A stretch of DNA of 53,788 nucleotides from Candidatus Levybacteria bacterium RIFCSPHIGHO2_01_FULL_40_16 (lineage in GTDB: Bacteria; Patescibacteriota; Microgenomatia; Levybacterales; UBA12049), in NCBI GenBank assembly GCA_001783805.1, contig MFNS01000002.1:1-53788 (forward strand), in the 5' to 3' direction. This document shows, piece after piece, positions 1-43,047 of the stretch. Position 1 is the first letter of the stretch; the number at the start of each line of letters is the position of its first letter. Under the pieces are notes generated by a model. It was not told where the DNA came from. It did not search any database and saw only the letters and a program-made list of their open reading frames with translations. The translations under genes and the position numbers were made by a program.

Positions 1-92
<92 letters not shown>

Positions 93-244
93 AATTGATA
101 CTGTCAAAATTGACGTTGACAAATATCAAACCCCGCCCAGGGCGGGGATTTCCTACCACTTCTTGATCGAGGAACAAAGTTCATAGGAACATGCTCCTTC
201 AAAATAGAAGAATCCTGATTCTGATTTGCTGCTATGACTTGATT

Positions 245-2275: not shown

Positions 2276-3115
2276 TTATTTCTTGGTGGATTTGGCTGGG
2301 GTTGGAGTTGGCACCACTCTTTGCAGGCTAACTGAAGCTTTTTGGAATTCACCAACTACACTTTTTACATCAATTGCATGCTGTAGGGCTGTTTGTCTGG
2401 CCGGCTGATTTTTGACAGCTGCCTCACTTGCCAATCTTGTCAAAACTTCGATTGCCCGGTTAATTCCTTTCGCGGAATTTGTGGCATTATTTAGATTGTC
2501 CGAAATTTCCTGATTTAAATCATCTATTATCTCATTCATTAAGAGATCTTCCGGCAAATTTTCTTCAGCTTTAACCTTGGCAAGCTTAAGAGCTTCTTTT
2601 GCCGCGACAACTTGCGCTTTTATTTCCCCATTAGCCTCATTCTCCAAACCGGATAGAACTTTCTGTTTTTCTTTGATTGAGTCATTTATTTCTTTTGCCA
2701 GCAAACTTATACTGCGTCCGGTTAGCTTGGCATTAACTAAATCTTCCGAAGCTCCTTTAAGATTATCCGACACCCCTTGGAGCGCAGTTCTAATTCCGGG
2801 AACATTATTCTTGGCCAACATCAATTGTAATTCTGCCAATCTTTCTCCGGCAACGCCGTTATGTATTTTGGCTTTCTGCTCGGGAGTAAATGCCAGAAGT
2901 AAACGAAATCCTTGTTTTATCCTGTCCAGAAAAAATAAAGGACTATCCGGAAGAATAAGTCCCGGTCCGTCAGAGGTCGGAGGAATTGACAATGTTGCTG
3001 CGCTGGCTACTCCCAAAACATCCTCCTGATGATTTGCCGATACGGAATTTGAAGAAAGAACAACAACTGCAGATGTCAGACTAACACTCAGTAAAAAAAT
3101 GAGAAACTTCCTCAC
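2276..3115 (-). CDS. Exported helical protein, DUF5667-like
   Basis: Signal-like N-terminus from a GTG at 3115 (VRKFLIFLLSV) and motif GLILPDSPLFFLDRIKQ...AGERLAE. The ORF-track start at 3211 overlaps topA and is probably too long. Confidence 0.65.
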   Translation of the reverse strand: MRKFLIFLLSVSLTSAVVVLSSNSVSANHQEDVLGVASAATLSIPPTSDGPGLILPDSPLFFLDRIKQGFRLLLAFTPEQKAKIHNGVAGERLAELQLMLAKNNVPGIRTALQGVSDNLKGASEDLVNAKLTGRSISLLAKEINDSIKEKQKVLSGLENEANGEIKAQVVAAKEALKLAKVKAEENLPEDLLMNEIIDDLNQEISDNLNNATNSAKGINRAIEVLTRLASEAAVKNQPARQTALQHAIDVKSVVGEFQKASVSLQRVVPTPTPAKSTKK

Positions 3116-3182: not shown

Positions 3183-5234
3183 TCAGGATGACAACGGAGA
3201 TTTGCCGACATCTTCTAATTTCCAAGCCGCAAATGTGCAGGCGGGGTAATTGGAACAGCCATAGAACTTGCGGCCTTTTTTGGTTTTTTTTATCACAATT
3301 TCCCCACCGTCTTTCGGACATTTCAAGCCTGTTTGCTCAACATAAGCTTTGGTAAATTTGCAATCGGGAAATCTAGAACAAGCAAAGAATTTGCCAAATT
3401 TTCCCGTTCTGATTATTAAATTTCCTTCACTACATTTAGGACATTTTTCGCCCGTTTCCTCAACTGCAATTTTTACTCTTTCCGCTCCTTCGACTTCGGT
3501 TAATTTTTTCTCAAACGGCGTGTAGAAATTACGCAAAACAAGTTCCCATTTTTTTTCTCCGATAGCAATATTATCAAGTTCATCTTCCATTGATGCGGTA
3601 AACGGAATATCGTCAATATATGAAAAATTTGTAACCAGGAAATCGCTGACGGCAATTCCGATTGCGGTCGGAGAAAATTTACCTTCTTGCCGTTCAATAT
3701 AGTTGCGGGCTTCAATGGTAGAGATAATCGTTGCGTAAGTTGAAGGCCTGCCAATTCCCTTTTCCTCTAATGTCTTGATAATCGATGCGTCATTGTATCT
3801 GGGCGGGGGCAAAGTTTCATGTTCTTTTTCCAAAACGTCGACAAGATCAAGCTTTTCACCGTTATTAAATTTGGGTAATTTATTATCAGACATTCCCAGC
3901 GGATTTACTTTCAAAAACCCGTCAAAAACAAGCACTGATCCGTTAGCTTTTAATTTATAAGAGCCTGCATCCACAAAAACCGTGGTTGACTCGACTACCG
4001 CGTCCGACATCTGCGATGCAACTGCCCGTCTCCAAATCAATTCGTATAATTTCCACCCCTGACTCCCAACTAAATTTGAAATTTGAAATTTGAAATTTGA
4101 AATTTCGCCGAAGGCAGTTGGTCTGATTGCTTCATGTGCTTCTTGGGCTAATTTTTGTTTGGCAGAATAAATTCTCGGTTGTAATGGCACATATTTGTCT
4201 CCATATTCTTTTTTAACGAAATTGATAATTGCAAACATCGCCGCCTGACCTATCGTTACGGAATCTGTTCTGTGATAAGTAATGTATCCTTCCTCATATA
4301 ATTTTTGCGCCAAACTCATGGTTCTTTTTCCATTGATATATAATTTATGCGCCGCATCCTGCTGAAGAGTTGAGGTTGTATATGGCGCTTGCGGGCTTCT
4401 GGTAGTGGCTTTCTGCAAAATATCTGCCACTGTAAATGTTTTCGTTTTTAAATCACCAACAATTCCTAAAGCTTTTTCTCCGGAGCCAATTGAAGTTTTA
4501 GTAACCTTATACTGCCCATCATACAGATCAAAAGTCTTCGCCACCTCAATCTTTTGGCCATCAATTTCTACCAGCTCGAATAATGTTTCCTCAGGTTTTG
4601 AGTTTTGAGTTTTGAGTTTTGAGTTCACCAGCGCCGCAGCGATGGTGTAGTATTTTTCTTTTCCAAACTTCTCAATTTCCCTTTCTCTTTCTACTATCAA
4701 ACGCAGGGCGACTGATTGAACGCGCCCCGCAGACAATCCCCTACGGACTTTTTTCCACAAAAGTGGAGAAAGTTTATAACCAACCAGCCTGTCTAAAACC
4801 CGGCGCGCGGTCTGCGCGTCAACCAAATTTTTATCTATGGTTCTGGGATTTTTTAGCGCCTCTTCAATTGCTTCTTTCGTTATTTCATGAAATACTATCC
4901 TATTGAATTTTTCATTTTTAACTTTTAATTTTTCATTTGAGCGGAGCATATCGGAGATATGCGAGGCGATCGCTTCTCCCTCCCTATCTGGGTCAGTAGC
5001 CAGAATAATTTGATCCGCTTTTTTTGCTTCAGTCTTAAGTTCGGCAATAATTTCCTCTTTATCCGCGACCATCTCGTATAAAGGCTTGAAGTTGTGCTCG
5101 AAATCTATGCCGATTTTGCTTTTAGGCAAATCCATAACGTGCCCCATTGAGGCTTTAATAACATAATCGCTGCCCAAAAACTTTCCAATTGTCCTAGCCT
5201 TTGTAGGACTTTCTACGATAACCAAACTTTTCAT
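3183..5234 (-). CDS. topA: DNA topoisomerase I (type IA) with C-terminal C4 zinc ribbons
   Basis: LVIVESPTKA, ATDPDREGEAI, SAGRVQS, GYITYHRTDS, AHEAIRPT and C-terminal CPKC/CSRFPDC repeats. Confidence 0.98.
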   Translation of the reverse strand: MKSLVIVESPTKARTIGKFLGSDYVIKASMGHVMDLPKSKIGIDFEHNFKPLYEMVADKEEIIAELKTEAKKADQIILATDPDREGEAIASHISDMLRSNEKLKVKNEKFNRIVFHEITKEAIEEALKNPRTIDKNLVDAQTARRVLDRLVGYKLSPLLWKKVRRGLSAGRVQSVALRLIVEREREIEKFGKEKYYTIAAALVNSKLKTQNSKPEETLFELVEIDGQKIEVAKTFDLYDGQYKVTKTSIGSGEKALGIVGDLKTKTFTVADILQKATTRSPQAPYTTSTLQQDAAHKLYINGKRTMSLAQKLYEEGYITYHRTDSVTIGQAAMFAIINFVKKEYGDKYVPLQPRIYSAKQKLAQEAHEAIRPTAFGEISNFKFQISNLVGSQGWKLYELIWRRAVASQMSDAVVESTTVFVDAGSYKLKANGSVLVFDGFLKVNPLGMSDNKLPKFNNGEKLDLVDVLEKEHETLPPPRYNDASIIKTLEEKGIGRPSTYATIISTIEARNYIERQEGKFSPTAIGIAVSDFLVTNFSYIDDIPFTASMEDELDNIAIGEKKWELVLRNFYTPFEKKLTEVEGAERVKIAVEETGEKCPKCSEGNLIIRTGKFGKFFACSRFPDCKFTKAYVEQTGLKCPKDGGEIVIKKTKKGRKFYGCSNYPACTFAAWKLEDVGKSPLSS

Positions 5235-7724: not shown

Positions 7725-8759
7725 CTAGATACCATACATTCCCCCATCAATACTCTTGACCATCCCTTTTATTTCCATGAGAGAAAGAAGGCTGCTAAGT
7801 TGGGAGGATTTATATTTAGTTTTTCTAATTATTTCATCAAAATGCAACGCCTCATTTTCCAAAAGCTTTAAGATTATTAACTCATCTTTGGTTGCATTCT
7901 GAACTTTTGAATTTTGCTTGCCCGCTAGAGCCTTAGCGAAGGCGGGAGTTTTGAGTTCCTTAAAAATATCTTCAGCCGATGTCACTAATTTCGCTCCTTT
8001 CGAAATTAATTTATATGGACCTTTAGACATACTTGAAGTAATCGGTCCGGGTACTGCAAAAACCTTTCGATCAAATCTCAGGGCAAACTTTGCGGTAATT
8101 AAGGATCCGCTGTCTTCTGCACCTTCTGTTACCAATACCGCCTGGGATAAGCCGGCGATAATCCGGTTGCGAGCAGGAAATGTCCATTGAGTTGGCTTCA
8201 TTCCCAAGGGAAATTCCGAAACAATACAATTCCCTTTTTCAAGGATACTATTATACAAATTGAAATTCTCCATTGGAGAACAACAATCGACTCCGCACCC
8301 CAGAACAGCGATCGTTTTCCCTCCATTTTCCAAAGCAGTCAGGTGCGAAATCGCGTCAACTCCAAGAGCCAGACCCGAAACAATCGTAAATCCGTTCAAA
8401 ACCAATTCCGTAGTCAAAAGTTTCGTAACTTCCCTGCCATATTGCGTAGTTTTCCTCGCGCCCACAACAGCGATTGTTTTTGCAAACCAGGTATCGTCTG
8501 GTACCTGGCCGCGGCCATACAGAACAAACGGCGGATTTTTTATTTCTTTTAAAATTTGCGGGTAATCTTCATCCAACAAGGTAACGAACCAAACATCTTT
8601 TTCCTTAAGCTGTTTTAAATATTCTTCAATTGAGAAGTCTGACTTCTTAGCCCCCCAAGCAGCTTTTGCGGTTCCAAATTCCTTCAAAATCTTCCTAAAT
8701 TTCGCCGGCCCTATTCCGGGCAGTGCAGAAAATCCCAACCAATAATCCCGCTCGCTCAT
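7725..8759 (-). CDS. dprA: DNA-processing protein DprA (Smf)
   Basis: IAVVGARK, IVSGLALGVDA, FPARNRIIAGLS, EGAEDSGSLITA and a C-terminal winged helix. Confidence 0.97.
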   Translation of the reverse strand: MSERDYWLGFSALPGIGPAKFRKILKEFGTAKAAWGAKKSDFSIEEYLKQLKEKDVWFVTLLDEDYPQILKEIKNPPFVLYGRGQVPDDTWFAKTIAVVGARKTTQYGREVTKLLTTELVLNGFTIVSGLALGVDAISHLTALENGGKTIAVLGCGVDCCSPMENFNLYNSILEKGNCIVSEFPLGMKPTQWTFPARNRIIAGLSQAVLVTEGAEDSGSLITAKFALRFDRKVFAVPGPITSSMSKGPYKLISKGAKLVTSAEDIFKELKTPAFAKALAGKQNSKVQNATKDELIILKLLENEALHFDEIIRKTKYKSSQLSSLLSLMEIKGMVKSIDGGMYGI

Positions 8760-9075: not shown

Positions 9076-10806
9076 TCAGCGGGAAAACCACTCTTCCAAG
9101 ATTTTTTTCGCGATGGGGGCGGCAACGTTGGAGCCCTCTCCTGAAGCCTCCGACAAAACTGTCACGATAATTTCCGGTTTTTCTGCCGGGGCAAAAAGCG
9201 TGATCCAAGCATGTGGTAAAGTTTCTTCCCCACCATGTTGTGCAGTTCCCGTCTTGCACGCAATTTTTATTTCTTCCTCATCTTTGAGATTTGATTTTTG
9301 ATTTTTGATTTTAAAATTAAACAGCGGCCAGGCAACTCCTCCCGCAGCACATGATTCAACCATCCCCTCCTTAATCAGGTCAGACGTCTCCCTGCTTAGA
9401 AATTTTTCATTTTTAACTTTTAATTTTTCATTTTTCAGAAGGTGGGGCTTATAAATAACCCCTTCATTGGCAATCGCTTGGGTCCAAACATTGATTTGCA
9501 AGGGAGTTGTCAGCAAAAAACCCTGCCCGATTCCATAATGATAGGTATCTCCCAAATACCAATTCTCCCCGATTGTGCTTTTCTTCCATTCTCTTGTCGG
9601 GACTAGACCCTCTTGCTCACCCAGAAGATCAATCCCTATTTTTTTTCCCAAACCGAACTTTTCTGCGAAGCCAGCAAGCTTGTCAACTCCGACTAATTCA
9701 GCCAATTTGTAGAAAAAAATGTCATTTGATCTTTGAATAGCTTTTACCACATTTACTTCTCCATCCGTCCTTCCGTATTGGGTAAAGTACCAGTTGGAAA
9801 AAGAAAAAGAACCAATTCTTAAAATTCCCGTATCTTCTATAGTAAAATTCCGATCGATAACTTTATTCTCCAATCCTGCCGCAGCGACAATCAGCTTGAA
9901 GGTTGATCCCGGAGGATATGTCCCTCCAATTGCGCGGTTCAAGAGGGGCTGACCTTCTGAATCCGATAAGATTTGTGACACGGATTTATAAGGCGTCGTC
10001 TCCCCCACGGAATATCCTTCACCCATAGTAAAAAGGTTGGGATCAAAAGGCGGACTGGACAGAAGGGCTAAAATTTCACCCTTGGGACTGGACACAATTA
10101 TGGCTCCTTTTTTGATATCTTTGGCCGCGTCAAACGCGGCTTTTTGCAGTACAATGTCCAAGGTAAGCGTAACATTCTGTCCGGGTACTGGATCTGTAAA
10201 GCCTAGTTTCCGGACAACTTTACCCAGACTATTTATTTCAACCAGTTCTCTTCCATTAATTCCGGCGAGTTTAGCTTCGTATTCTCTTTCAATTCCGATT
10301 TTCCCAATCAAATCTCCGCCCCCGTAGAGGGCAAAATCTTTATTTTTTAATTCTTCCGGAGAAATTTGTCCGATATAACCCAAAACATGGGAAAAAATGT
10401 CTTCATACGGATATTGCCTCAAGACGTCAATCTCCAAATTATTTTCTCCTTCGGATAAAAGTTTTAACGCTTCATTTTCATCTATAAGTTTTGTTTTACC
10501 GTTTAACGTCTGCCTAAATCCTGGAACATTAAAAACCAAGGGTACTCCTGTTCTATCAAAGATAATTCCGCGGGGAGCATGGATGGGAATAGTTCTTGTT
10601 CTATTGCTATCCGAAAGATTTCGAAAACTTTCTCCTTTAATAATTTGCAGAAAAAAAAGTCTTGCAACAATTAAGGTTACTGCTATTATCAAAATTACGG
10701 GCAAGATGTAGCTTCTCACGGAATAGTTTTTGTCAAAATTTCCGGGATGTTTTTGGCTTTTTTCAAGTCTTATATAGTCTCCGAATGCAGGCCCAATTTT
10801 AACCAT
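9076..10806 (-). CDS. mrdA: Penicillin-binding protein 2
   Basis: APRGIIFDR, PGSTFK (SxxK), SND (SxN) and KTGT; located in the mre cluster. Confidence 0.95.
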   Translation of the reverse strand: MVKIGPAFGDYIRLEKSQKHPGNFDKNYSVRSYILPVILIIAVTLIVARLFFLQIIKGESFRNLSDSNRTRTIPIHAPRGIIFDRTGVPLVFNVPGFRQTLNGKTKLIDENEALKLLSEGENNLEIDVLRQYPYEDIFSHVLGYIGQISPEELKNKDFALYGGGDLIGKIGIEREYEAKLAGINGRELVEINSLGKVVRKLGFTDPVPGQNVTLTLDIVLQKAAFDAAKDIKKGAIIVSSPKGEILALLSSPPFDPNLFTMGEGYSVGETTPYKSVSQILSDSEGQPLLNRAIGGTYPPGSTFKLIVAAAGLENKVIDRNFTIEDTGILRIGSFSFSNWYFTQYGRTDGEVNVVKAIQRSNDIFFYKLAELVGVDKLAGFAEKFGLGKKIGIDLLGEQEGLVPTREWKKSTIGENWYLGDTYHYGIGQGFLLTTPLQINVWTQAIANEGVIYKPHLLKNEKLKVKNEKFLSRETSDLIKEGMVESCAAGGVAWPLFNFKIKNQKSNLKDEEEIKIACKTGTAQHGGEETLPHAWITLFAPAEKPEIIVTVLSEASGEGSNVAAPIAKKILEEWFSR

Positions 10807-14123: not shown

Positions 14124-14131
14124 ATAGAGAA

Positions 14132-14240
14132 AATTTTCAATTTACAGTTTACAATTTTCAATAAATGATCCAATTATCAATGCTTGAAACATTGCGTGAT
14201 TGAAAATTTAATGAAAATTGCAAATTGGTAATTGCAAATT
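14132..14240. repeat. Intergenic palindromic element built from inverted heptamer arrays
   Basis: Left arm AATTTTC-AATTTAC-AGTTTAC-AATTTTC; right arm ...GAAAATTG-CAAATTG-GTAATTG-CAAATT. Related to 20042-20149. Confidence 0.75.
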
Positions 14241-14295
14241 GTTTTTATCATAGCATACTCTTGACAAGAAAATAAAATTATGTCACTCTAGATAC

Positions 14296-14850: not shown

Positions 14851-17202
14851 ATGAAATTCCTCAATCTTTGCAACCGGATTATCGAATATTCTTTCTATAC
14901 CCTTTTTCTTCTGGTTCCGCTTGCTTTTACGAGTGCTACTTCCGAGCTTTTTGAGTTGAATAAAATGTGGCTTGTCTGGGGACTAACTATTATTATTGGC
15001 GCGTCTTGGTTTATAAAAATGATTCTTCAAAAACGAATTCTGCTTTGCAGAACACCCCTGGATATTCCAATCGGTCTCTTTCTCCTTTCTCAAATCATCT
15101 CCACTATTTTCTCTCTGGATCCGCATGTTTCTTTGTGGGGTTATTATTCCCGCTTTAACGGCGGATTACTGTCCATAATTTCCTACATTTTGCTGTACTA
15201 TGCATTTTTAAGTAATTTCGATTCTCAAAAATTATCCGCTGTAGTCCGTAGACTATTGACCATAAGCTTAATATCCGGCCTGATTGTGGCGTTGTGGGGA
15301 CTTCCCTCTCATTTCGGCTACGACCCGACTTGCTTACTTTTTCGGGGCCAATTTAATGTTGCTTGCTGGACAGATGCTTTTCAGCCAAAAATCAGAATTT
15401 TCTCAACACTGGGACAGCCTGATTGGCTCGCCGCCTACCTGGCCATTCTAATACCAATTTCTATAGCAATGGCATTAAATAATTTACGAGCTCAAAATAA
15501 TCCTGATAATAAGTATCATGTATCAGGTGTCATGTATTATGTATCTAATAAAAAAATACTACATACTACCTACTACATACTACTTACTGCATTATTCTAC
15601 GTTGATCTCCTTTTCACTCGTGCGCGCTCCGGATTTTTGGGAATTTGGCTTTCTCTTATTTTTTTCGCCGCTTTATATTATCGGATCAGCGGCAAACCAA
15701 AATTATCCATATCAGCCGAAAATCTAAAATCTCCTATTGCCATTTTGATTTTTGGACTATTAATTATTACCTTCATCATCGGCACGCCGATTAACCAATT
15801 GAATAAGTTCACGCTTGCAGGAATCGGGAGCATTTTTCAGAAACCCGTAACTACTGAAACACAGGAAGATAAAGCACCCATTCAACCATCTGATTCCGGA
15901 GGGACAGAATCGGGAGACATAAGACTTTTAGTTTGGGAAGGCGCGTTAAGCACTTGGAGAGCAAATTTCCTCTTTGGCACAGGAGTGGAAACGTTTGCTT
16001 TTGCTTATTACAGGTACAAGCCCGTTGGCCAAAACCTAACCTCCGAATGGAACTTCCTATACAACAAAGCCCACAATGAGTTCCTTAACTATCTTGCGAC
16101 CACCGGCATTTTTGGATTAGGAACTTACCTACTCATGATCAGCTCTTTTTTCTTTGTAGGCTTTAAGAAGCTCAAAGCGCAAATGTCAAAACTCAAAGAT
16201 GAAACTCAAAACGAAAAGCTTTCAGCTTTAAGCTGTAATTTTGAGCTTTGCATTTTGAGCTTTGCACTACTGGCAAGCTACGTCTCCATCTTGATTACCA
16301 ATTTCTTTGGATTTTCCGTTGTCATGACAAATGTATATTTATTTATGCTTCCCGCTTTTGTCTTTGTTTTAAGCAATACGATTAAGACAGAAAGATCCGC
16401 GCAATCCGCCAACTCATCCGCGAAAATCTACAATAACGAATCTAACAATATGTATCAATGGACCGGTATTTTCTTTATAATTCTTGCTTCATTATTCATG
16501 ATTCTAAACTTAGTCCGTTTCTGGCAGGCAGATATTGCCTATGCTTTGGGCTATAATCTAGACCAGGCCAAAGAATATCAACAAGCCTATCCAAATTTAC
16601 ACAAAGCAGTAGAACTTCGGGGAAATGAGCCTGTTTTTAAAGACGAGCTTGCCATAAATGATGCAATTATTGCCGCAGGATTGGTCTCTCAAAAGCCTAT
16701 TGATTCAACTACAAAAGAACAAGCGGTCAGCGTTGCTTCTTCTTTGGCTCAAGAAGCAATTAACACTAGCAATGAAGTCGTTTCTCAACACCCAAACAAT
16801 GTAGTCTTTTGGAAGACCAGGGTCAGGCTTTTTCTTACTCTTGCTCAAGTTGATTCCCGATATTTGCCGCGTACTCTGGATGCGGTTGAAAAAGCTTCTC
16901 TTCTTGCTCCTAACGATGCAATTATTTGGTATAATCTCGGTGTTTTATACGGACAGAATAATAATCTTGAGAAGGGAATTTCGGCTCTGGAAAAAACAAT
17001 TAAGCTCAAGCCCGATTACAGGGATGCGCGTTTTGGATTAGGCATTTTTTATCATACTGCTTCCCTGGATAAAGACAGAAAGGTAGTTGTGGATCAGACT
17101 CTAAATCAAAAAGCAATCGCCCAAATGCAATATATTTTGGATAATCTATCTCCGAAGGATGCAGATGCCCTAAAATCCATTGAGGATTGGGCCAAACTCT
17201 AA
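14851..17202 (+). CDS. O-antigen-ligase/O-oligosaccharyltransferase-like membrane protein with C-terminal TPR
   Basis: Multiple TM helices, STLGQPDWLA, FTRARSG, GTGVETF, KAHNEFLNYLATTGIFG and TPR-like WYNLGVLY...ARFGLG. Confidence 0.85.
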   Translation: MKFLNLCNRIIEYSFYTLFLLVPLAFTSATSELFELNKMWLVWGLTIIIGASWFIKMILQKRILLCRTPLDIPIGLFLLSQIISTIFSLDPHVSLWGYYSRFNGGLLSIISYILLYYAFLSNFDSQKLSAVVRRLLTISLISGLIVALWGLPSHFGYDPTCLLFRGQFNVACWTDAFQPKIRIFSTLGQPDWLAAYLAILIPISIAMALNNLRAQNNPDNKYHVSGVMYYVSNKKILHTTYYILLTALFYVDLLFTRARSGFLGIWLSLIFFAALYYRISGKPKLSISAENLKSPIAILIFGLLIITFIIGTPINQLNKFTLAGIGSIFQKPVTTETQEDKAPIQPSDSGGTESGDIRLLVWEGALSTWRANFLFGTGVETFAFAYYRYKPVGQNLTSEWNFLYNKAHNEFLNYLATTGIFGLGTYLLMISSFFFVGFKKLKAQMSKLKDETQNEKLSALSCNFELCILSFALLASYVSILITNFFGFSVVMTNVYLFMLPAFVFVLSNTIKTERSAQSANSSAKIYNNESNNMYQWTGIFFIILASLFMILNLVRFWQADIAYALGYNLDQAKEYQQAYPNLHKAVELRGNEPVFKDELAINDAIIAAGLVSQKPIDSTTKEQAVSVASSLAQEAINTSNEVVSQHPNNVVFWKTRVRLFLTLAQVDSRYLPRTLDAVEKASLLAPNDAIIWYNLGVLYGQNNNLEKGISALEKTIKLKPDYRDARFGLGIFYHTASLDKDRKVVVDQTLNQKAIAQMQYILDNLSPKDADALKSIEDWAKL

Positions 17203-17796: not shown

Positions 17797-18641
17797 TGAA
17801 AATTGTTTTCTTTGGCTCATCATCTTATGTCATTCCAATTCTTAGATTTTTAGTCAAAAACTTTGATTTAAAATTAGTCTTAACTACGGAAAAATCCGGA
17901 GGCGCGGTTCCGACCTTTTGCAAACAAAATAAGATTGAATTTTTATCCGTTCCCAATCTTTCCGACTCAAATCTTAAATCCTTAATCTTAAATCTTAAGT
18001 CTCCAATCGCCGTCTTGGCTGACTTTGGCTTAATAATTCCTCCTGAAATTCTTAATTTGTTTCCCAAAGGAATAATTAATCTCCATCCTTCGCTTTTGCC
18101 GAAATACCGGGGTCCGACTCCGGTTCAAAATGCGATTTTAAATGGAGATAAAATTACTGGTATCAGCATTATTAAACTTGATGAAGAAATAGATCATGGG
18201 CCAATCCTGGGACAAGAAAAAGAGCAGATTTTGGACACCGATACTGCCGAATCGTTATATAAAAGGCTGTTTGCAAAAGGAGCAAATTTATTACCCAAAA
18301 TATTGAATAAATACCTAGAAGAAAGCCTTAAGTTAATCGCCCAAAATCACGAAAACGCCACTTTTACCAAATCTTTGAAACGCGAAACCGGTTTTATCGA
18401 TACATCAAAAATTAAAGATCAAAAATCAAAAATTAAGTTAGAAAGGAAAATTCGCGCATACTTCCCCTGGCCAGGCGTCTGGACCCGCCTTCGCCTAGGC
18501 TATGGCGGGCAAGCAAAATTAAAAATTATTAAGTTTTTACCTTTTGGAAAACTTCAGGTTGAGGGGAAAAAACCGGTCAGTTACAAAGATTTTCTCAACG
18601 GCTACCCCGACGCTAAAAGCGTAATACTACCAATACTATAA
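17796..18641 (+). CDS. fmt: Methionyl-tRNA formyltransferase
   Basis: MKIVFFGS, INLHPSLLPKYRG, DHGPI and PWPG; directly follows def. Confidence 0.95.
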   Translation: MKIVFFGSSSYVIPILRFLVKNFDLKLVLTTEKSGGAVPTFCKQNKIEFLSVPNLSDSNLKSLILNLKSPIAVLADFGLIIPPEILNLFPKGIINLHPSLLPKYRGPTPVQNAILNGDKITGISIIKLDEEIDHGPILGQEKEQILDTDTAESLYKRLFAKGANLLPKILNKYLEESLKLIAQNHENATFTKSLKRETGFIDTSKIKDQKSKIKLERKIRAYFPWPGVWTRLRLGYGGQAKLKIIKFLPFGKLQVEGKKPVSYKDFLNGYPDAKSVILPIL

Positions 18642-18672: not shown

Positions 18673-18900
18673 TTAGGCGGTGGCGGAAACCGGAGATGCT
18701 ACTTTGGGAGAAGCTTTTGGAGCCATTTCTTTCTTTAATTTCCTCAAGCATTTAACACAGAGTTTTACTCGCCTCAAAGTTCCATCAATCATTACGCGCG
18801 CGGGGTGAAGATTGGGTGCAAAAATCCGGTTGGTCCGATTTTTTGCATGGGACACGTTATGTCCATACATTACGCCTTTTCCGCAATTTGCACACTTCAT
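18673..18900 (-). CDS. rpmB: 50S ribosomal protein L28
   Basis: MKCANCGK...GHNVSHAKNRTNRIFAPNL...LCVKC. Confidence 0.93.
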   Translation of the reverse strand: MKCANCGKGVMYGHNVSHAKNRTNRIFAPNLHPARVMIDGTLRRVKLCVKCLRKLKKEMAPKASPKVASPVSATA

Positions 18901-18971
18901 TCCAGTACTCATAGACAAACTCTAATCCTGATAGTATACTAAAAACTGCAATCAAATACAATAATAAATCT

Positions 18972-19376
18972 GTGCTAGTTCAAAACTCAAATATCAAAAA
19001 TCAAAGCCAAAATAAAAGTCCAAAGCTGGAAGTAAAATATCGCGCGTTCTATCTATCCATAAACATTATTAAGTTTTTAGAAAAACTTTCGTATAAGGTT
19101 TCTCTTAAAATTATTAGCGATCAGTTAATCAGATGCATTACTTCCGTAGGCGCTAATATCGTCGAAGCAAAAGCATCTTCTTCTAAAAGAGAGTTTCTTA
19201 ATTACTTTCAAATATCTTTAAAAAGCGCTAATGAGGCTAAATATTGGCTGGCAATGCTAAGAGAGCTACTACCCGAAGAAGGAAAAAATATAAATGTTTT
19301 TATTCAAGAATTGGACGAAATATCTAGAATAATTGGAACAAGCGTTTTAACAATGAAAGGAAAAAGAAGTCTCTAG
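18972..19376 (+). CDS. Four-helix-bundle protein (23S rRNA IVS-protein/Avd-like family)
   Basis: DQLIRCITSVGANIVEA...SKREFLNYFQISLKSANEAKYWL. Confidence 0.9.
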   Translation: MLVQNSNIKNQSQNKSPKLEVKYRAFYLSINIIKFLEKLSYKVSLKIISDQLIRCITSVGANIVEAKASSSKREFLNYFQISLKSANEAKYWLAMLRELLPEEGKNINVFIQELDEISRIIGTSVLTMKGKRSL

Positions 19377-19432
19377 GTTTTTAACTTTGAAATAGTCTTT
19401 GATATTTGAACTTTGATCTTTGATCTAATATT

Positions 19433-20038
19433 ATGATTCTTTCCGCAATTATTACCCTAACCATTTTGCTTTTCTCCGCTATTCTCCACGAAATCGCCCA
19501 CGGTTATGTTGCGGAACGCCTTGGCGACCCGACAGCCCGCCTGATGGGGCGACTAACCCTGAACCCAAAAAATCACATCGATCCGATGATGAGTATTGCC
19601 TTACCTTTAATACTATTAATTACGGGATCTCCGATTATTATCGGTGCAGCTAAACCTGTTCCGGTTGATCCTTTTAATTTGCGCGACGGCAGAAAAGATA
19701 TGGCATTGGTTTCCCTCGCCGGACCTTTGACAAACGTCGCTTTGGCCATCGCTGCCAGCTTAATCTTAAAATTTATTCCATATTCCATTTTCTACGATTT
19801 ACTTGCGGCCATTACACATTTAAATCTCCTGCTGGCAATTTTCAACTTATTACCGATTCCCCCTTTGGACGGATCCAAAATCTTTGCCCTGCTTCTCCCG
19901 GAAAAACTGGCTAATGCATATCTGTCTTTGGGGTCAATTGGAATTTTTATTATCTTTTTCCTACTGATGATCTCCAGCACGCTGGGAAACCTGATCTTCA
20001 ATCTCCTCACTTTCTCGGAAAAACTCCTAGGATTGTAA
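19433..20038 (+). CDS. Site-2 protease (peptidase M50)
   Basis: HEIAH, GRLTLNP, AGPLTN and NLLPIPPLDG. Confidence 0.93.
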   Translation: MILSAIITLTILLFSAILHEIAHGYVAERLGDPTARLMGRLTLNPKNHIDPMMSIALPLILLITGSPIIIGAAKPVPVDPFNLRDGRKDMALVSLAGPLTNVALAIAASLILKFIPYSIFYDLLAAITHLNLLLAIFNLLPIPPLDGSKIFALLLPEKLANAYLSLGSIGIFIIFFLLMISSTLGNLIFNLLTFSEKLLGL

Positions 20039-20041
20039 AAT

Positions 20042-20149
20042 AATTTTCAATTTGAAATTTAAAATTTTAAATCAAATCTAAATGTTTTAATTTTAAAAAT
20101 TTAAAATATTGAAAATTCAATGAAAATTAAAAATTGAAAATTTAAAATT
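20042..20149. repeat. Intergenic palindromic heptamer element (second copy of the 14132 family)
   Basis: Shares AATTTTCAATTT (12/12) and ATTGAAAATTyAATGAAAATT (20/21) with 14132-14240. Confidence 0.75.
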
Positions 20150-20195
20150 ATATATCTATTGACTTCCCCCCCCAACTTTGTCATATTTAATTAAG

Positions 20196-21755
20196 ATGAA
20201 CTTTCTCAGAAAGTTTCGTGATTTTATTTTATCTCCTTCGCGCTCAAGAACAATGGGACTTCTGGCTGTGCTGGTGCTTGTCTCCGCAGTTTCCCTGACC
20301 GTAATTGTCGCCCAACAACAACAAACTCTCAAACAAAGGGCAGCCTCCGCTTGTTATGATGCCTCTGATTGTGAAACAGGTTATTTTTGTAACAACGGCA
20401 AATGCCAGCCCGTAACCGGAGACGCCTGCACCGCAAATGGAGGAAATTGTATTCCGATGGGGCCATGTGTTCCACCCTCTGTCCAAGATGCAAGTTACAG
20501 CTGCGGTAACAATCCGAACGGATCTGTTTGCTGTACAACCCCCTCTTTTAATTGCGTTGATAAAGATTGTTTTAGCAGTCAAACCTGCATCGGAAGTCTT
20601 TATGACGATTCAACATACTGTCTTAGTAAGGGAGTTGGCATAATCGGATCTTATTGCGGAAAACCCGACAAAACCCCAAACAATGAAGCTTGTGCTTCAG
20701 GATATTGCAATCCTACTACCCTACTTTGCTCCGCTGGCTGTACGGATACAGGAAGTACCTGCACTGATAGCATAGAAACATGGACGGACTTCTGTAATGG
20801 TAATACTGCTAATGATTATTTTTGCGGAAGTAATGGGCAATGTAATCAGAGAGCTTCGAATTGCCCTCCTCCGACAATCTGCATAGTAGATGCTGATGGT
20901 GCCGGTTGTGTTAACCCGGGTGCTCCGACGGCTCCACCCTCAGACTGTACGGAATCGGGAAATACTTGCACCGATAGCAGTGGGAGCTATACAGACAGCT
21001 GTGGCCCTACTGATGCTAACGGGACTGCTGCTCGTAATTATACTTGCGCTAATGGATATTGCAACCAATCCGCTTGGTATTGCCCCCCTCCAACAATCTG
21101 CATAGTAGATGCTGATGGCGCCGGTTGCGTTAGTCCAAATGCCCCAACCTCCACCCCAATTCCGGGAGCTCCCACCTTCACCCCCACTCCGACTCCAGTT
21201 GCAGGAGCTCCGACCTCAACTCCAACTCCTACCCCAACCCCAACCCCAATCAATTTTGTCACTCTGGTGTTGACTTTGAATGATCAGGATGTGGCATCAG
21301 CTTCGGGTGATATCTTTGCAGATCTTATTCTTTACAGTCTTAAGGACAATTCAAAAGTGCCCGGCGCGCCTGCAAAACAATTATTTACCAAGACTTTTAT
21401 TCCAGGAAAAAAATATTCGGCGAATATAACTCTTGCGAATTTACATCAGGACAAATATTTCTTGGTTGTACGGAAAAACAACATGATAGCAAAAGCTTTC
21501 TTCACTGTTTCAGCCCCGAATGAAACAATTCCCGTCCCCACGAAAACCCTTGTTTTCGGAGATATCAATAGCGATAACGATATAAATATTTCAGACTATT
21601 ATAATGATAATGCGTTTAGAGGCTGCTGGCGAAAATCAACTACTGCAGATCCTTCTTGTGCGTCATCGGATTTCGATAATAGCGGGACTGTTGAGCAGAT
21701 TGATTACAATACTTTTCTTCGAGGATTCTCAACTTGGAGTAAAGAAGGAAAATAA
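20196..21755 (+). CDS. Membrane-anchored Cys-rich surface protein with a PT linker and C-terminal dockerin-like domain
   Basis: TM helix followed by QQQQTLKQRAA, many Cys, two internal repeats, a (PT)n linker and GDINSDNDINISD...DFDNSGTVEQID Ca-binding loops. Confidence 0.75.
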   Translation: MNFLRKFRDFILSPSRSRTMGLLAVLVLVSAVSLTVIVAQQQQTLKQRAASACYDASDCETGYFCNNGKCQPVTGDACTANGGNCIPMGPCVPPSVQDASYSCGNNPNGSVCCTTPSFNCVDKDCFSSQTCIGSLYDDSTYCLSKGVGIIGSYCGKPDKTPNNEACASGYCNPTTLLCSAGCTDTGSTCTDSIETWTDFCNGNTANDYFCGSNGQCNQRASNCPPPTICIVDADGAGCVNPGAPTAPPSDCTESGNTCTDSSGSYTDSCGPTDANGTAARNYTCANGYCNQSAWYCPPPTICIVDADGAGCVSPNAPTSTPIPGAPTFTPTPTPVAGAPTSTPTPTPTPTPINFVTLVLTLNDQDVASASGDIFADLILYSLKDNSKVPGAPAKQLFTKTFIPGKKYSANITLANLHQDKYFLVVRKNNMIAKAFFTVSAPNETIPVPTKTLVFGDINSDNDINISDYYNDNAFRGCWRKSTTADPSCASSDFDNSGTVEQIDYNTFLRGFSTWSKEGK

Positions 21756-21769
21756 TGTATAATTAACCT

Positions 21770-22363
21770 ATGCCTAAGAGAACGCTTTTCCTAATATTTG
21801 CACTTTTCTTAATTACCTTTGCGCTTTTGCTGATAGCGCTTTATCAGCCACAAGCTCCCAAAACTACAACAACAATAGCTCCCAAAGAGCCTGTTGCTCA
21901 AACTGTCCTTTCCTTCGGAAATCTTTCTCTTGCAAGCCCCTCATCGGTTTTACGCCAGCCGGCGGATTTAAATTACTCTCTTCCAATAAGTATTTCAACC
22001 GGAAAAAATAAGGTAACTGCAGTACAGTTGGAATTACAATATGATCCACAGATTCTAACAAACGTAGCTGTTGTTCCCGGGCCTTTTTTCGCAAATCCGG
22101 AAGTGCTTTTAAACCAAATTGATACCAAAACCGGAAGAATATCTTATGCTTTTGGCGTCGGACTTACGGGTTCAGGGGTTGCCGGAAAAGGAACCGTGGC
22201 TAACCTTATTTTCACAGCAATAAAAACACCGAAGAAAACAGCAATCATCTTCCTGCCAAAAACCCTAGTCACAGCTGAAGGAGTAAGCGAATCTGTATTG
22301 AAACAAACTAATGTAGGCCAAATTATTATCGGAAATAACAATTCTACTTCCAGCGCACAATAA
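21770..22363 (+). CDS. Membrane-anchored cohesin-domain protein
   Basis: N-terminal TM helix; VTAVQLELQYDP...TGRISYA...GKGTVANLIF beta-sandwich pattern. Confidence 0.75.
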   Translation: MPKRTLFLIFALFLITFALLLIALYQPQAPKTTTTIAPKEPVAQTVLSFGNLSLASPSSVLRQPADLNYSLPISISTGKNKVTAVQLELQYDPQILTNVAVVPGPFFANPEVLLNQIDTKTGRISYAFGVGLTGSGVAGKGTVANLIFTAIKTPKKTAIIFLPKTLVTAEGVSESVLKQTNVGQIIIGNNNSTSSAQ

Positions 22364-41157: not shown

Positions 41158-41796
41158 CTAAAAGACATTGTTATAGTAGTCATATTTGAGATTTGTCCGG
41201 TTCATCCAGTTGCCGGGAAAGTTGATCTGCCCTTTTGTGTAACGGAAAGAACCCTTATTCGCGTCTTCTCTCATGATAAACCAGGCGCCTTGGTGATTGG
41301 TAAATCCATAAAAAGCGATGATGCTGTCGTCAATCTCGGTAATATTGTATCCGACCAATGGCTGATCTTGTTCAAGATTGCTACTATCGGTTGCGGCAGT
41401 TTCCATATTTCTTTCCGATGGTGCCGGAGAACTTTTGGGAAATAGGTTTTCGAATTTTTTATTAAAAATTGAGAAGAGGAAAACGGCAAGTCCTGCACCG
41501 CCAATCAGTTTAAGAAATGCCCGCCTGTCAATATCGGCAATGCCTAGATTTTCTCCTATTGCCGCCCCGATTCCTGCCACCGACTTCATCGAAGGATGGC
41601 TCGTGGCCACCGATTCCCTAGAATATGCCGCCCGAGTCCGGCGCGGAAAGACTTTAAAGAAGAAAAGAATAAGCAATGGATAAAGAAGAATTGCGACGGC
41701 CAGCTGGAGATAGGTTTTGGCAGTCACAAACGTTGCTCCCACCACCAGGCCGGCGACTATAAAGATAAAACCGGTTAGAACCTTGCCTTTATTCAT
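41158..41796 (-). CDS. Hypothetical membrane protein with an internal RR motif
   Basis: Two N-terminal TM helices, DRRAFLKLIGG plus a TM helix, and an aromatic-rich C-terminal domain. Confidence 0.7.
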   Translation of the reverse strand: MNKGKVLTGFIFIVAGLVVGATFVTAKTYLQLAVAILLYPLLILFFFKVFPRRTRAAYSRESVATSHPSMKSVAGIGAAIGENLGIADIDRRAFLKLIGGAGLAVFLFSIFNKKFENLFPKSSPAPSERNMETAATDSSNLEQDQPLVGYNITEIDDSIIAFYGFTNHQGAWFIMREDANKGSFRYTKGQINFPGNWMNRTNLKYDYYNNVF

Positions 41797-42880
41797 TTAT
41801 CTCCTCCCTAACCTCTACATATGTTGCCGATATAAAGCCTGACTCGGTAGCTAATTTGACCTCATACCACTTTGAATCAGCAGAAACAAATTCGAAAATG
41901 TCGCCATCTTTAGCCTGTCCGATTATTTCCGAATTGGTGGTCGATTTTTGGCGGATGTTCACACTTTCCGCCCCATCACTAACTTTAACCGTTACGATCA
42001 TTTTGGGTTTTACCTCTTCTGTTGTTGAAAGAACTGCGGGAGCAATAGAAGGATTGAAATCATTGGCTGTGGAAACCATAACGTTTCTTATTCCGAAGGT
42101 AAACAGCAACAAAAATACTACAATTGTCGCCAGAAGTTCAGGCATTCTTTGCAGGGGCTTCAGAGAGGATTGTGCAGCTGTTTCCGGAAGATGATTTTCA
42201 ACATTTCTTGCAGGATCTCTCCTTTCAAGATGCTCAATTTCACTCTCAAAAGTGATATCCTTAAGAAGTTCCTTTACCTTTTGGTCGGGTTCGTATTTTT
42301 CCACAAAATCTTTGTATCCGGCCGTCCCCTTGCCAAAAAAAGACAGAACAATTTTCGGCTTAACCCAGGAAGTTTCTCTTGCACCCAAATATTCGCTATA
42401 GGATGAATGGCCGCCGGCATAATGGAAAAAACGAGTCAGGTGCGGCAGACGGGGTCCGCTCTTGATCTGAACTGACTTATATGGGCCTTCGAATAGAGCT
42501 CCTGTGCGCTGGTATTTCTTATTAAAATACATTGAATATCTGGTACACAAAGATCTGATAAAGCTCTCCAACGAGCCTTTGGCCACCTGATGCAAGAGTA
42601 AATGGAAGTGGCCCGGCATTAACATGTACGCGATGAGCTCAACTTTGTTGAAATAATTCTTAGGCTGGTGAGGAGTGCCTCGGAAAACGCGACCATTCAC
42701 CGTAAAAGACTTTTTGATGCTTTCGGGATCCTGGGGAGGAGTCAAATAACCCTCTAGGAAGTCAAGGAAGACCGTGTAATCCGCTTCGTCGTTGAAAATG
42801 ACCCTGTTCTCTACCCCTTTGTTGTAAATGTGGGAATAAATTCCTTCTTTCCGTTCCCTAAAGAGATTTTTGGCAGGCAT
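41789..42880 (-). CDS. RAYT/IS200-like HUH transposase domain fused to a TM helix and an SH3-type domain; probably catalytically dead
   Basis: HIYNKG, AYMLMPGHFHLL, YFNKKYQRTGALF and SSY..Y; TM LLATIVVFLLLFTFGI; VNIRQKSTTNSEIIG...WYEV...GFIS. Confidence 0.8.
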   Translation of the reverse strand: MPAKNLFRERKEGIYSHIYNKGVENRVIFNDEADYTVFLDFLEGYLTPPQDPESIKKSFTVNGRVFRGTPHQPKNYFNKVELIAYMLMPGHFHLLLHQVAKGSLESFIRSLCTRYSMYFNKKYQRTGALFEGPYKSVQIKSGPRLPHLTRFFHYAGGHSSYSEYLGARETSWVKPKIVLSFFGKGTAGYKDFVEKYEPDQKVKELLKDITFESEIEHLERRDPARNVENHLPETAAQSSLKPLQRMPELLATIVVFLLLFTFGIRNVMVSTANDFNPSIAPAVLSTTEEVKPKMIVTVKVSDGAESVNIRQKSTTNSEIIGQAKDGDIFEFVSADSKWYEVKLATESGFISATYVEVREEINE

Positions 42881-43047
42881 AATATTACAATACCTTGTAA
42901 GAAGATACTTTGCAAGTACCAATTTGAAGCTAAATCTTCCCGAAGATTAAGAAGAAGATGAATCCTTATAAGTATTTTTTGATATCAACCGCCCCAATAG
43001 ACTGCTAAACGGAGCTGAAGAAAAAGAATGTGCTATAATGAGCCGGA

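Follow-up and report, generated by a model that had tools for sequence, protein, structure and literature searches.

Genes and repeats at the locus

The stretch of DNA analysed here, referred to below as the window, comprises 53,788 nucleotides (nt) of Candidatus Levybacteria bacterium RIFCSPHIGHO2_01_FULL_40_16 (contig MFNS01000002.1). It contains a small gene for a four-helix-bundle (4HB) protein, enclosed by two arrays of tandem heptamers that are complementary to each other and situated between rpmB and the gene for an M50-family peptidase. The gene and its flanks were examined as a putative mobile cassette. The paired inverted arrays that flank the 4HB gene are termed arms, and S1, S2 and S3 denote subfamilies 1, 2 and 3 of related loci. 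The locus is composed of the following features:

18673..18918, minus strand: rpmB (L28), the divergent left neighbour (Pfam PF00830)
18912..18940, plus strand: promoter-like site TAGACA-17-TATACT (10/12 consensus match), the probable M50 promoter, now upstream of the cassette
18963..19432, plus strand: putative inserted cassette, 470 nt, termini AATA...TATT, delimited by alignment of the rpmB/M50 spacer with empty alleles and with the occupied sister locus L193
18972..19376, plus strand: gene for the 4HB protein, 134 amino acids from GTG; PF05635 domain at residues 18-121 (nt 19023-19334)
18976..19024, plus strand: 5' arm of tandem TCAAANN heptamers, inside the open reading frame (ORF) as called from the GTG at 18972; encoded peptide QNSNIKNQSQNKSPK
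19379..19427, plus strand: 3' arm built of NNTTTGA heptamers in tandem, reverse-complementary to the 5' arm, ending 5 nt before the M50 ATG
19433..20038, plus strand: M50-family peptidase, the host gene, presumably co-transcribed with the cassette (Pfam PF02163)

In the window sequence, the GTG at 18972 is followed by GTTCAAAACTCAAATATCAAAAATCAAAGCCAAAATAAAAGTCCAAAG, and the TAG stop codon (19374-19376) by GTTTTTAACTTTGAAATAGTCTTTGATATTTGAACTTTGATCTTTGATCTA, ATATT and the ATG of the downstream gene at 19433. A repeat search around the gene returned inverted arms of 49 nt (18976-19024 and 19379-19427) that are 73% complementary and share a perfect 12-mer (TCAAATATCAAA/TTTGATATTTGA). Period-7 arrays were reported by Tandem Repeats Finder at 18980-19005 (3.7 copies) and 19396-19426 (4.4 copies). 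The original prediction, made from the letters of the window, had claimed inverted heptamer arrays around a 4HB gene between rpmB and an M50 protease; the arrays are real by sequence, by Tandem Repeats Finder and by the inverted-arm search, and the Pfam matches of the two neighbours bear out the placement.

The ORF was matched to Pfam PF05635 (23S_rRNA_IVP; E 6e-19, 68.6 bits, cut-off 33.8) and to TIGR02436 ('four helix bundle protein'; E 2.8e-22, 79 bits, cut-off 24), and its family membership is given by these two scores, both of which exceed the curated cut-offs. Against the PDB, the protein itself was matched to 2RLD (E 8e-12) and, via the family profile, to 2GSC/XCC0516 (E 4.6e-12). The motif of the PF05635 family, G/SxxRxxxSxxxNxxE (PMC3936711), is present as ...DQLIRCITSVGANIVEA..., and S58, N62 and E65 are invariant in alignment A1. 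The exact 134-residue protein was found on at least 24 metagenome contigs with identical gene order; the nearest species representatives are Levybacteria/Levyibacteriota.

Insertion into the rpmB/M50 spacer

About 40 GTDB species representatives and about 45 metagenomic relatives share the gene order def-fmt-rpmB(-)-M50(+), with no 4HB gene between rpmB and M50. The distance between these two genes in relatives lacking the 4HB gene (about 80 Levybacteria/Microgenomates) is 29-250 nt. The closest empty allele, L322, has a spacer of 56 nt and an M50 protein 87% identical to that of the window, which is the highest M50 identity reached in a metagenome scan for empty alleles. In the relatives L296, L304, L306, L311 and others, TAGTATACT is followed by a leader of about 22 nt and then directly by the M50 ATG. 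Both the TAGTATACT box, at the promoter-like site 18912-18940, and this leader recur in the window, through ...AAATACAAT (18962), and extra sequence follows to 19432. Judged from this alignment, positions 18963-19432 (470 nt) are an insertion relative to these loci, placed exactly between the promoter/5' untranslated region (5'UTR) of M50 and its ATG.

The sister species represented by L193 carries a cassette at the same place, with a 4HB protein 88% identical to that of the window and nearly identical arms, and the cassette is present in all of ten strain-level contigs (99.6-100% identical). As one component of the explanation preferred below, the insertion probably took place in the ancestor of the window's Levybacteria species and this sister species, in the same orientation as M50. 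A comparison of presence and absence among relatives had been proposed as a check; about 80 of them lack the 4HB gene at this site, so that it is not syntenic and fixed.

The rpmB/M50 spacer is an insertion hot spot: in relatives it is occupied by ORF-less hairpins of at least five further kinds and by two unrelated 4HB cassettes (L035, L294). Another type of palindromic element (...GTCATTCTGAG...CTCAGGATGAC...), which is not built from heptamers, was seen in the same spacer in the Levybacteria loci L280/L281, L285, L015 and L034.

Array density and control reading frames

Arrays of the form (TCAAANN)3 with at most one mismatch occur 18 times in the window, compared with 0.08 expected from shuffles. 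About 17 period-7 arrays are located in its first 20 kb; nine of these are of the TCAAANN type, and many lie inside ORFs. Heptamer arrays as such are therefore non-random, yet they are not specific to the 4HB gene, and, because period-7 arrays are so common in the first 20 kb, the bracketing by itself is weaker evidence than the comparative data.

Flanks were scored by the best local alignment of the 160 nt around the start of a gene with the reverse-complemented 130 nt that follow its stop codon. The 4HB gene of the window obtained a flank score of 23. The median for 603 control ORFs (other ORFs from the same set of loci) was 9 and the 95th percentile 13.5, with just three of the 603 at 23 or above. 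RNAduplex energies, calculated on flanks of 160 x 130 nt, gave no discrimination (the controls averaged -45 kcal/mol), and the local-alignment score was used instead.

High scores (21-33) were also recorded in Aegiribacteria/Fermentibacteria for a gene outside PF05635 that lies downstream of M50 between complementary flanks (L059, 4653-5510; L045, L048, L050, L058). It may represent another cassette type or paired elements resembling repetitive extragenic palindromes (REPs).

Homologous loci of subfamily 1

Related loci were gathered with three single-protein queries. With the window protein, 386 homologues were obtained at E <1e-5; over 100 of these match it in length at 69-88% identity and are recorded from Levybacteria, WWE3 and unclassified Patescibacteria. 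The protein is 65-82% identical in L191, L192 and 16 GTDB loci, the latter bringing in Roizmanbacteria and Woesebacteria, and no two neighbourhoods are alike; one copy, for example, lies between deoC and rpiB. Every gene in this set has (A)TCAAAN repeats before it and NTTTGAT repeats after it. In L098, L099, L102 and L105 a stop codon intervenes between the 5' array and the ORF, which starts at the ATG of MEVKYRAF; the window has CTG at the position of this ATG. The 5' array thus functions at the nucleic acid level and need not be translated into an N-terminal tail.

Copies of S1 share 73% amino acid identity and 69-73% identity in the arms, compared with 40% at 4-fold degenerate sites (34% by chance). 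The 4HB protein and the arm sequences are hence under purifying selection, as both are conserved while 4-fold sites are near saturation. The 4HB protein is 77-78% identical in genomes under other lineage names, such as WWE3 (P0025), and M50 identity is only 47-53% in Shapirobacteria and Woesebacteria; the higher identity of the 4HB protein across lineages indicates horizontal spread. In L191 a 5' arm region (2930-3000, including ...AAAGTC..CAA.ATG) is duplicated upstream of the cassette and may be the remnant of an earlier copy. No relatives were found in IMG/VR viral contigs, no PADLOC or PHROG family was matched, and the arms of the window and of 20 scanned loci correspond to no Rfam family.

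Architecture in other subfamilies

Among PF05635 genes, 23 of 25 had a flank score of at least 15, against the control median of 9 (Mann-Whitney p 1e-13). Divergent PF05635 genes in the same loci have inverted arrays of their own, built from GTTAAGA, GAGAAGT, ATCAGAT, TTAGTCT, ATTTTAA and other heptamers. S2 (query L110) comprises 80 loci from many phyla of the candidate phyla radiation (CPR), Omnitrophota, Planctomycetota and Bacteroidota; 69 of the 74 usable loci scored at least 15, with arms composed of CTAATT-containing units of 7-9 nt. Tandem or nested cassettes were noticed in L119, L155 and L158, where the stop codon of one 4HB gene is immediately followed by the 5' arm of a second unit of the CTAATT type.

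S3, the relatives of the crystallised XCC0516, comprises 80 loci across Bacteria. The median score of a locus's own arms was 20.5, compared with 9.0 for cross-locus pairings (p 1.6e-35), and own arms outscored at least 95% of the cross pairings in 61 of 77 loci. Of 55 arms, 42 had a best period of 7; each locus has heptamers of its own. Near-perfect arms are present on finished plasmids of cultured cyanobacteria, as in Nostoc flagelliforme, (AATTCAA)4...(TTGAATT)4, and on a plasmid of Nostoc sp. N6, (AATTCGC)4...(GCGAATT)4. On pANACY.01 of Anabaena cylindrica (L195) a 4HB cassette is located between cas2 and cas1, and in Pseudanabaena (L198) one adjoins cas1. The XCC0516 homologue of Xanthomonas vasicola lies between accB and accC and is flanked by GGGAATC arrays.

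Arm compatibility was 21-23 within a subfamily and about 11, the background value, between subfamilies; within S3 it rises with protein identity (Spearman 0.21, p 8.5e-18). Where two cassettes occur in one genome, their heptamers differ (L098, L103, L109). Together these data identify the arms as part of the element, co-diverging with the gene, and not as a property of the host genome or a pre-existing target. In S1-S3 the arms stay complementary while the heptamer sequence changes between subfamilies, and gene and arms have been inherited together and have reached unrelated loci and lineages as a single unit. The original prediction had also proposed that other 4HB loci be inspected for inverted arrays, and nearly all of those collected here are so flanked.

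Two ideas about the arms were given up or weakened. That a protein subfamily reads a specific heptamer was weakened by L106 (56% identical to S1, different arms), by L107 (40%, S1-like arms) and by the locus-specific heptamers of S3. That each arm holds about five repeats, matching a pentamer, was dropped, as the copy number ranges from 2 to 7 (modes 5 and 4 in S1, 3-4 in S2) and the spacing is 7 or 9 nt.

Empty hairpins

ORF-less heptamer hairpins, which support the proposed 'full' cassette, were found both at the same spacer in relatives and in the window itself:

14124..14248, strand not assigned: 'empty' heptamer-array hairpin in the spacer between mreB and a 164-residue ORF, 62-nt arms
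16166..16271, strand not assigned: 'empty' TCAAA/TTTGA hairpin, in frame inside a Wzy_C/TPR ORF, 57-nt palindromic arms; residues missing in relatives
20040..20151, strand not assigned: 'empty' heptamer-array hairpin, intergenic, just downstream of M50, 55-nt arms

The Wzy_C/TPR ORF encodes a membrane protein of 783 amino acids and contains two hairpin-like heptamer pairs in frame (15513-15592 and 16166-16271); both lie in loops that are 7-19 amino acids shorter in relatives, and the second site carries a longer insert in L002.

Position, transcription and RNA folding

In 91 cassettes the arms measure about 51 nt. Measured as medians, 12 nt separate the cassette from the gene upstream, and 11-15 nt lie between the end of the 3' arm and the following start codon. 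The upstream neighbour is on the same strand in 80 of 89 cases and the downstream neighbour in 73 of 88. Cassettes thus fit closely between co-directional genes, with a few nt left before the start codon that follows. Within the window, cassette and M50 are not separated by a terminator-like site, and the best promoter-like site is upstream of the cassette; both fit a promoter-less cassette that lives on host transcription.

When the RNA 18955-19445 was folded, the arms were paired in both the minimum-free-energy and the centroid structure. The predicted stem consists of 5-bp UCAAA/UUUGA helices separated by 2x2 loops, with GUG 18972 and AUG 19433 at its base.

Proposed mechanism

The explanation preferred here is that 18963-19432 is a hairpin-type selfish gene cassette, the counterpart in a protein-gene context of the ORF-bearing intervening sequences (IVSs) of 23S rRNA; this is considered likely. 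The cassette would share with M50 a transcript that starts at the host promoter. Within this RNA the arms would form a long interrupted stem, by which the ORF is looped out and the host leader is brought next to the host AUG. By analogy with the IVSs of Coxiella and Leptospira, the stem would probably be a substrate of RNase III; the host transcript would stay usable and the insertion nearly harmless because of this proposed cut. Movement to new sites would take place at the DNA level by means of the hairpin-forming ends, with the enzyme supplied in trans, and the 4HB protein, related to the pentameric XCC0516 and more remotely to the nucleic-acid-binding Avd of diversity-generating retroelements, would serve the element rather than the host. 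Such an IVS-type selfish element could live in any transcribed spacer.

Several results weigh against this explanation. The cassette encodes no recombinase. The ten strain-level contigs show polymorphism neither in presence/absence nor in repeat number, so that there is no empty allele at the species level. No target-site duplication was detected at the junctions ACAAT/AATA...TATT/ATG (slashes mark the boundaries, known within a few nt); L112 and L115 likewise have none. The duplication beside terminal inverted repeats that characterises miniature inverted-repeat transposable elements and terminal-inverted-repeat transposons is accordingly missing. The fold of the whole transcript is not unusually stable (z = -1.0). 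Mismatches in the arms show no excess of G-U over A-C (172 vs 205 in the 91 cassettes, 107 vs 104 in 57 cassettes of S3), for which reason selection for pairing in the sense RNA is not visible. Within S1, moreover, a cassette's own arms pair no better than arms taken from different loci (-27.6 vs -28.2 kcal/mol): since the TCAAA/TTTGA cores are conserved, there is no covariation within S1, and it becomes visible only between subfamilies.

Symmetric complementarity of this kind points to DNA-level copying, conversion or recognition (hairpin or cruciform ends, templated repair in a palindrome), and the arm cores are conserved beyond what pairing alone requires. Of the original prediction, the discrete 'full' insertable cassette with complementary arms has held up, given the insertion, the recurrence of gene and arms, and the empty hairpins; the pairing of the arms in the transcript, with the ORF looped out, is a prediction from folding.

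Alternative explanations

The arms may work mainly as DNA, that is, as terminal inverted repeats that form a hairpin or cruciform for an enzyme acting in trans, such as a Y1 HUH transposase of the RAYT (REP-associated tyrosine transposase) or IS200 type, with RNA pairing as a by-product. This explanation partly overlaps the one preferred here and has an appreciable chance of being correct. The missing G-U bias in 91 + 57 cassettes fits DNA copying or repair, and arm cores conserved far above synonymous sites are expected of an end recognised by a protein. REPINs, the hairpin-forming doublets of REPs, provide a precedent together with RAYTs (PMC3116915). A RAYT-like protein that is conserved in Microgenomates is encoded in the window:

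41789..42922, minus strand: 377-residue protein with a Y1_Tnp domain (HUH motif GHFHLLL; Pfam PF01797, 26.9 bits, cut-off 23), a transmembrane segment and a C-terminal SH3_3 domain

This protein is conserved at 50-70% identity in Levybacteria, Gottesmanbacteria and Roizmanbacteria, in the manner of a domesticated host gene. It is a candidate trans-acting enzyme for hairpin DNA, and as such a lead, not a link to the cassette. Its gene is 22 kb away, and Tandem Repeats Finder located no heptamer arrays flanking it in the window. Its NCBIfam REP_Tyr_transpos score of 17.5 bits is below the cut-off of 80, and it has the transmembrane segment and SH3 domain in addition. It was looked at in Microgenomates, whereas the cassettes occur in many phyla. 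Neither a target-site duplication nor a conserved cleavage motif was found at the junctions. The earlier statement that the window contains no reverse transcriptase or recombinase was half right: Pfam scans of 57 ORFs gave no reverse transcriptase, but the window encodes the Y1_Tnp protein (41789-42922), and DprA at 7725-8759.

It is unlikely that the arms are a pre-existing heptamer hairpin of the kind formed by the short tandemly repeated repetitive (STRR) sequences, into whose tip the 4HB gene was inserted as in homing into a loop. This would account for the empty heptamer hairpins of many types in the same spacer (L002, L009, L010, L011, L030, L286, L287, L305, L307 and others) and in other spacers of the window, and for the locus-specific heptamers of S3. 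However, the same arms accompany the same gene subfamily across unrelated loci and lineages, arm compatibility tracks protein identity, the two cassettes of one genome have differing heptamers in L098, L103 and L109, and the empty alleles closest to the window (L322, L282-L284) have no hairpin.

The probability is very small that an ordinary resident gene is flanked by a purely local regulatory device for 4HB and M50 (attenuator, translational operator or mRNA stabiliser). The two start codons at the base of the predicted stem would suit such a device, and a regulatory role has been proposed in Beggiatoaceae for heptamers that immediately precede start codons (PMC4679880), but the 4HB gene is missing here in about 80 relatives and present at unrelated sites, and its protein identity of 77-78% (e.g. 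in WWE3) against 47-53% for M50 points to horizontal spread.

A remnant of a diversity-generating retroelement (DGR), with the 4HB protein as Avd, is highly improbable. Avd-like accessory proteins are placed in PF05635. The accession PF05635 also occurs in PMC10053308. The reading is rejected because none of the 57 window ORFs scanned with Pfam (about 80 amino acids or longer) encodes a reverse transcriptase; in addition, no RVT domain was present among the genes called around 4HB homologues, a search around the 4HB gene for a template/variable repeat pair, which would be about 100 nt long and differ at A positions, gave the heptamer arms, which are short tandem repeats, and short chance repeats, and the cassette is just 470 nt long and lacks a reverse transcriptase at every locus inspected.

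Coincidence, in which two of the frequent heptamer arrays left by slippage (about 17 of period 7 in 20 kb, nine of them TCAAANN, some solo within ORFs) happen to surround a 4HB gene, is equally improbable and already refuted by the control flank scores, matched in only 3 of 603 ORFs, by arm compatibility between subfamilies, by the own-arm and cross-locus scores of S3, and by the same flanks at more than 200 homologous loci.

Comparison with known systems

IVSs interrupt helix 9, 25 or 45 of 23S rRNA, or 16S rRNA, and are removed by RNase III with no rejoining of the transcript. The IVS in the 23S rRNA of Coxiella has 428 nt, an S23p ORF, a 28-bp terminal stem and two to three GACAGAT heptamers before the ATG, and is cut by RNase III at the start of the first heptamer (PMC4990558). 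ORFs of 23S_rRNA_IVP (PF05635) are contained in rRNA insertions of CPR bacteria (PMC11270868). The window cassette resembles these IVSs (helix 45 in Coxiella; Leptospira) in its size (470 vs 428 nt), in the PF05635/S23p ORF in the loop, in terminal inverted repeats that form a long stem (predicted here), in tandem heptamers before or over the start of the ORF, in a sporadic, horizontally spread distribution and in the occurrence of ORF-less and ORF-bearing versions. It differs in being located in the 5'UTR of a protein-coding gene and not in rRNA; Rfam detected only the 5' end of 16S rRNA at window positions 1-93, and no rRNA near 20 scanned loci, which are mostly close homologues. The window arms are also longer, imperfect and composed wholly of heptamers, and purifying selection acts on the ORF, in contrast to the reported decay of its counterpart in Coxiella.

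Tandem 7-nt intergenic units, often in convergent inverted pairs, are shared with the STRR sequences of heterocystous cyanobacteria and with the GGGAATC arrays of Xanthomonas, and these units flank 4HB genes in Nostoc/Anabaena plasmids and between accB and accC of X. vasicola. STRR heptamers were reportedly described by Mazel et al. in 1990. In Xanthomonas, 70-75 convergent inverted pairs have been recorded and left unexplained (PMC4692102). Both kinds have been described as simple-sequence or G-quadruplex elements, with no link to PF05635 or to mobility in the literature searched.

REPINs are non-autonomous, intergenic, hairpin-forming inverted doublets of REPs proposed to be moved by a RAYT in trans (PMC3116915). 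The cassettes share with this system hairpin-forming inverted doublets dispersed between genes, and a RAYT-like Y1_Tnp protein in the window. REPINs differ in being gene-less, with one conserved REP sequence per genome, and in lying beside their RAYT; arms of the window type are tandem heptamers of many families, and a gene is carried.

Avd of DGRs has a 4HB fold of the same broad family and is a small, basic pentamer that binds nucleic acid and reverse transcriptase. The structure of XCC0516 (2GSC) was deposited as five chains, and the protein is a homopentamer (PMC4990558). The cassettes differ from DGRs by the lack of a reverse transcriptase and of template/variable repeats, and Avd was not detected by sequence search.

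With integron gene cassettes they have in common a promoter-less single ORF, a structured, imperfectly palindromic site, the use of an outside promoter and co-directional arrays (the tandems L119, L155 and L158). They differ in having no attC organisation and in arms that flank the ORF and are mutually complementary; no IntI or other integrase was found by Pfam among the scanned window ORFs. The palindromic elements of Rickettsia insert in frame into protein-coding genes, a behaviour shared by the empty hairpin in the Wzy_C ORF (16166-16271); the Rickettsia elements are unrelated in sequence, not built from heptamers and without a cargo gene.

Other observations in the window

Solo TCAAANN arrays were observed within conserved genes at 1137-1169, 4072-4105, 4595-4625, 9283-9312 and 18404-18433 (SpoU methylase, TopA twice, PBP2 and fmt). 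TCAAA is always on the coding strand, and the encoded peptides include ISNLKSQISNLK, NSKLKTQNSK and SKIKDQKSKIK. At the fmt site the protein is three amino acids longer than in many relatives, some of which have other repeats there. An identical 33-nt array (AATTTTTCATTTTTAACTTTTAATTTTTCATTT) is present in the unrelated genes for TopA (4906-4938) and PBP2 (9402-9437), encoding NEKLKVKNEKF in both.

Downstream of M50, a 525-residue Cys-rich protein with a Thr/Pro linker (no Pfam match) is followed by a cohesin-domain protein (20178-22363); the length of the linker varies by strain (519-525 amino acids in total), with a 6-nt ACCCCC indel in L084. From about 23580 to 50900 the window holds a polysaccharide/glycan modification island (GT2, many Methyltransf_24, DegT aminotransferases, epimerases and a second formyltransferase) that is nearly devoid of heptamer arrays, unlike the first 20 kb. 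Tandem repeats of 24/48/72 nt (consensus TCCGCCAGTGAGTCAATTTCACCG) occupy 52433-53788 within a minus-strand ORF without a Pfam match, which is probably a repetitive surface protein.

Significance

Proteins of PF05635/TIGR02436 are among the commonest uncharacterised small proteins in CPR bacteria, Bacteroidota, cyanobacteria, Planctomycetota and other groups, and are represented by two crystal structures. For more than 30 years, neither ORF-bearing rRNA IVSs nor heptamers of the STRR type have been explained. The IVS with its S23p ORF, the heptamers of the Coxiella IVS and the STRR and GGGAATC arrays are already known separately. In the literature covered, to which Elhai et al. 2008 (Nostoc repeats) and the early STRR work do not belong, there was no statement that non-rRNA PF05635 genes are generally packaged, in the form of insertable cassettes, between inverted heptamer arrays.

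A wider view can be put forward tentatively and may well prove wrong: the heptamer arrays of Nostoc/Anabaena (STRR), the Xanthomonas GGGAATC pairs, the CPR arrays and those of the Coxiella IVS would be arms, solo arms or empty shells of one hairpin superfamily, the 'full' form of which carries a PF05635 4HB gene, and the rRNA IVS would be the special case of an element landed in an rRNA helix. The pentameric 4HB protein would then be the element's own factor, binding the nucleic acid of the periodic arms in single-stranded or hairpin form and recruiting host enzymes (RNase III, polymerase or HUH nuclease) for excision and spread; alternatively, the 7-nt arrays might be generated and homogenised by the protein itself.

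Cassettes carrying 4HB genes occur inside operons, including cas operons, and split conserved gene pairs, and the related empty hairpins add low-complexity peptides in frame to essential proteins in CPR genomes. A 'CRISPR association' of 23S_rRNA_IVP has been reported in large screens (PMC3936711, PMC10910872); it may be conjectured that cassettes in cas operons, with their flanking short repeats, could explain some of it. The window locus and more than 200 related loci examined here join a 4HB gene, inverted heptamer arms and insertion just ahead of the host start codon, and so connect the PF05635 proteins, the ORF-bearing rRNA IVSs and the STRR-type heptamers. The same packaging surrounds the PF05635 family across bacteria and constitutes a widespread, little-described kind of mobile hairpin element.

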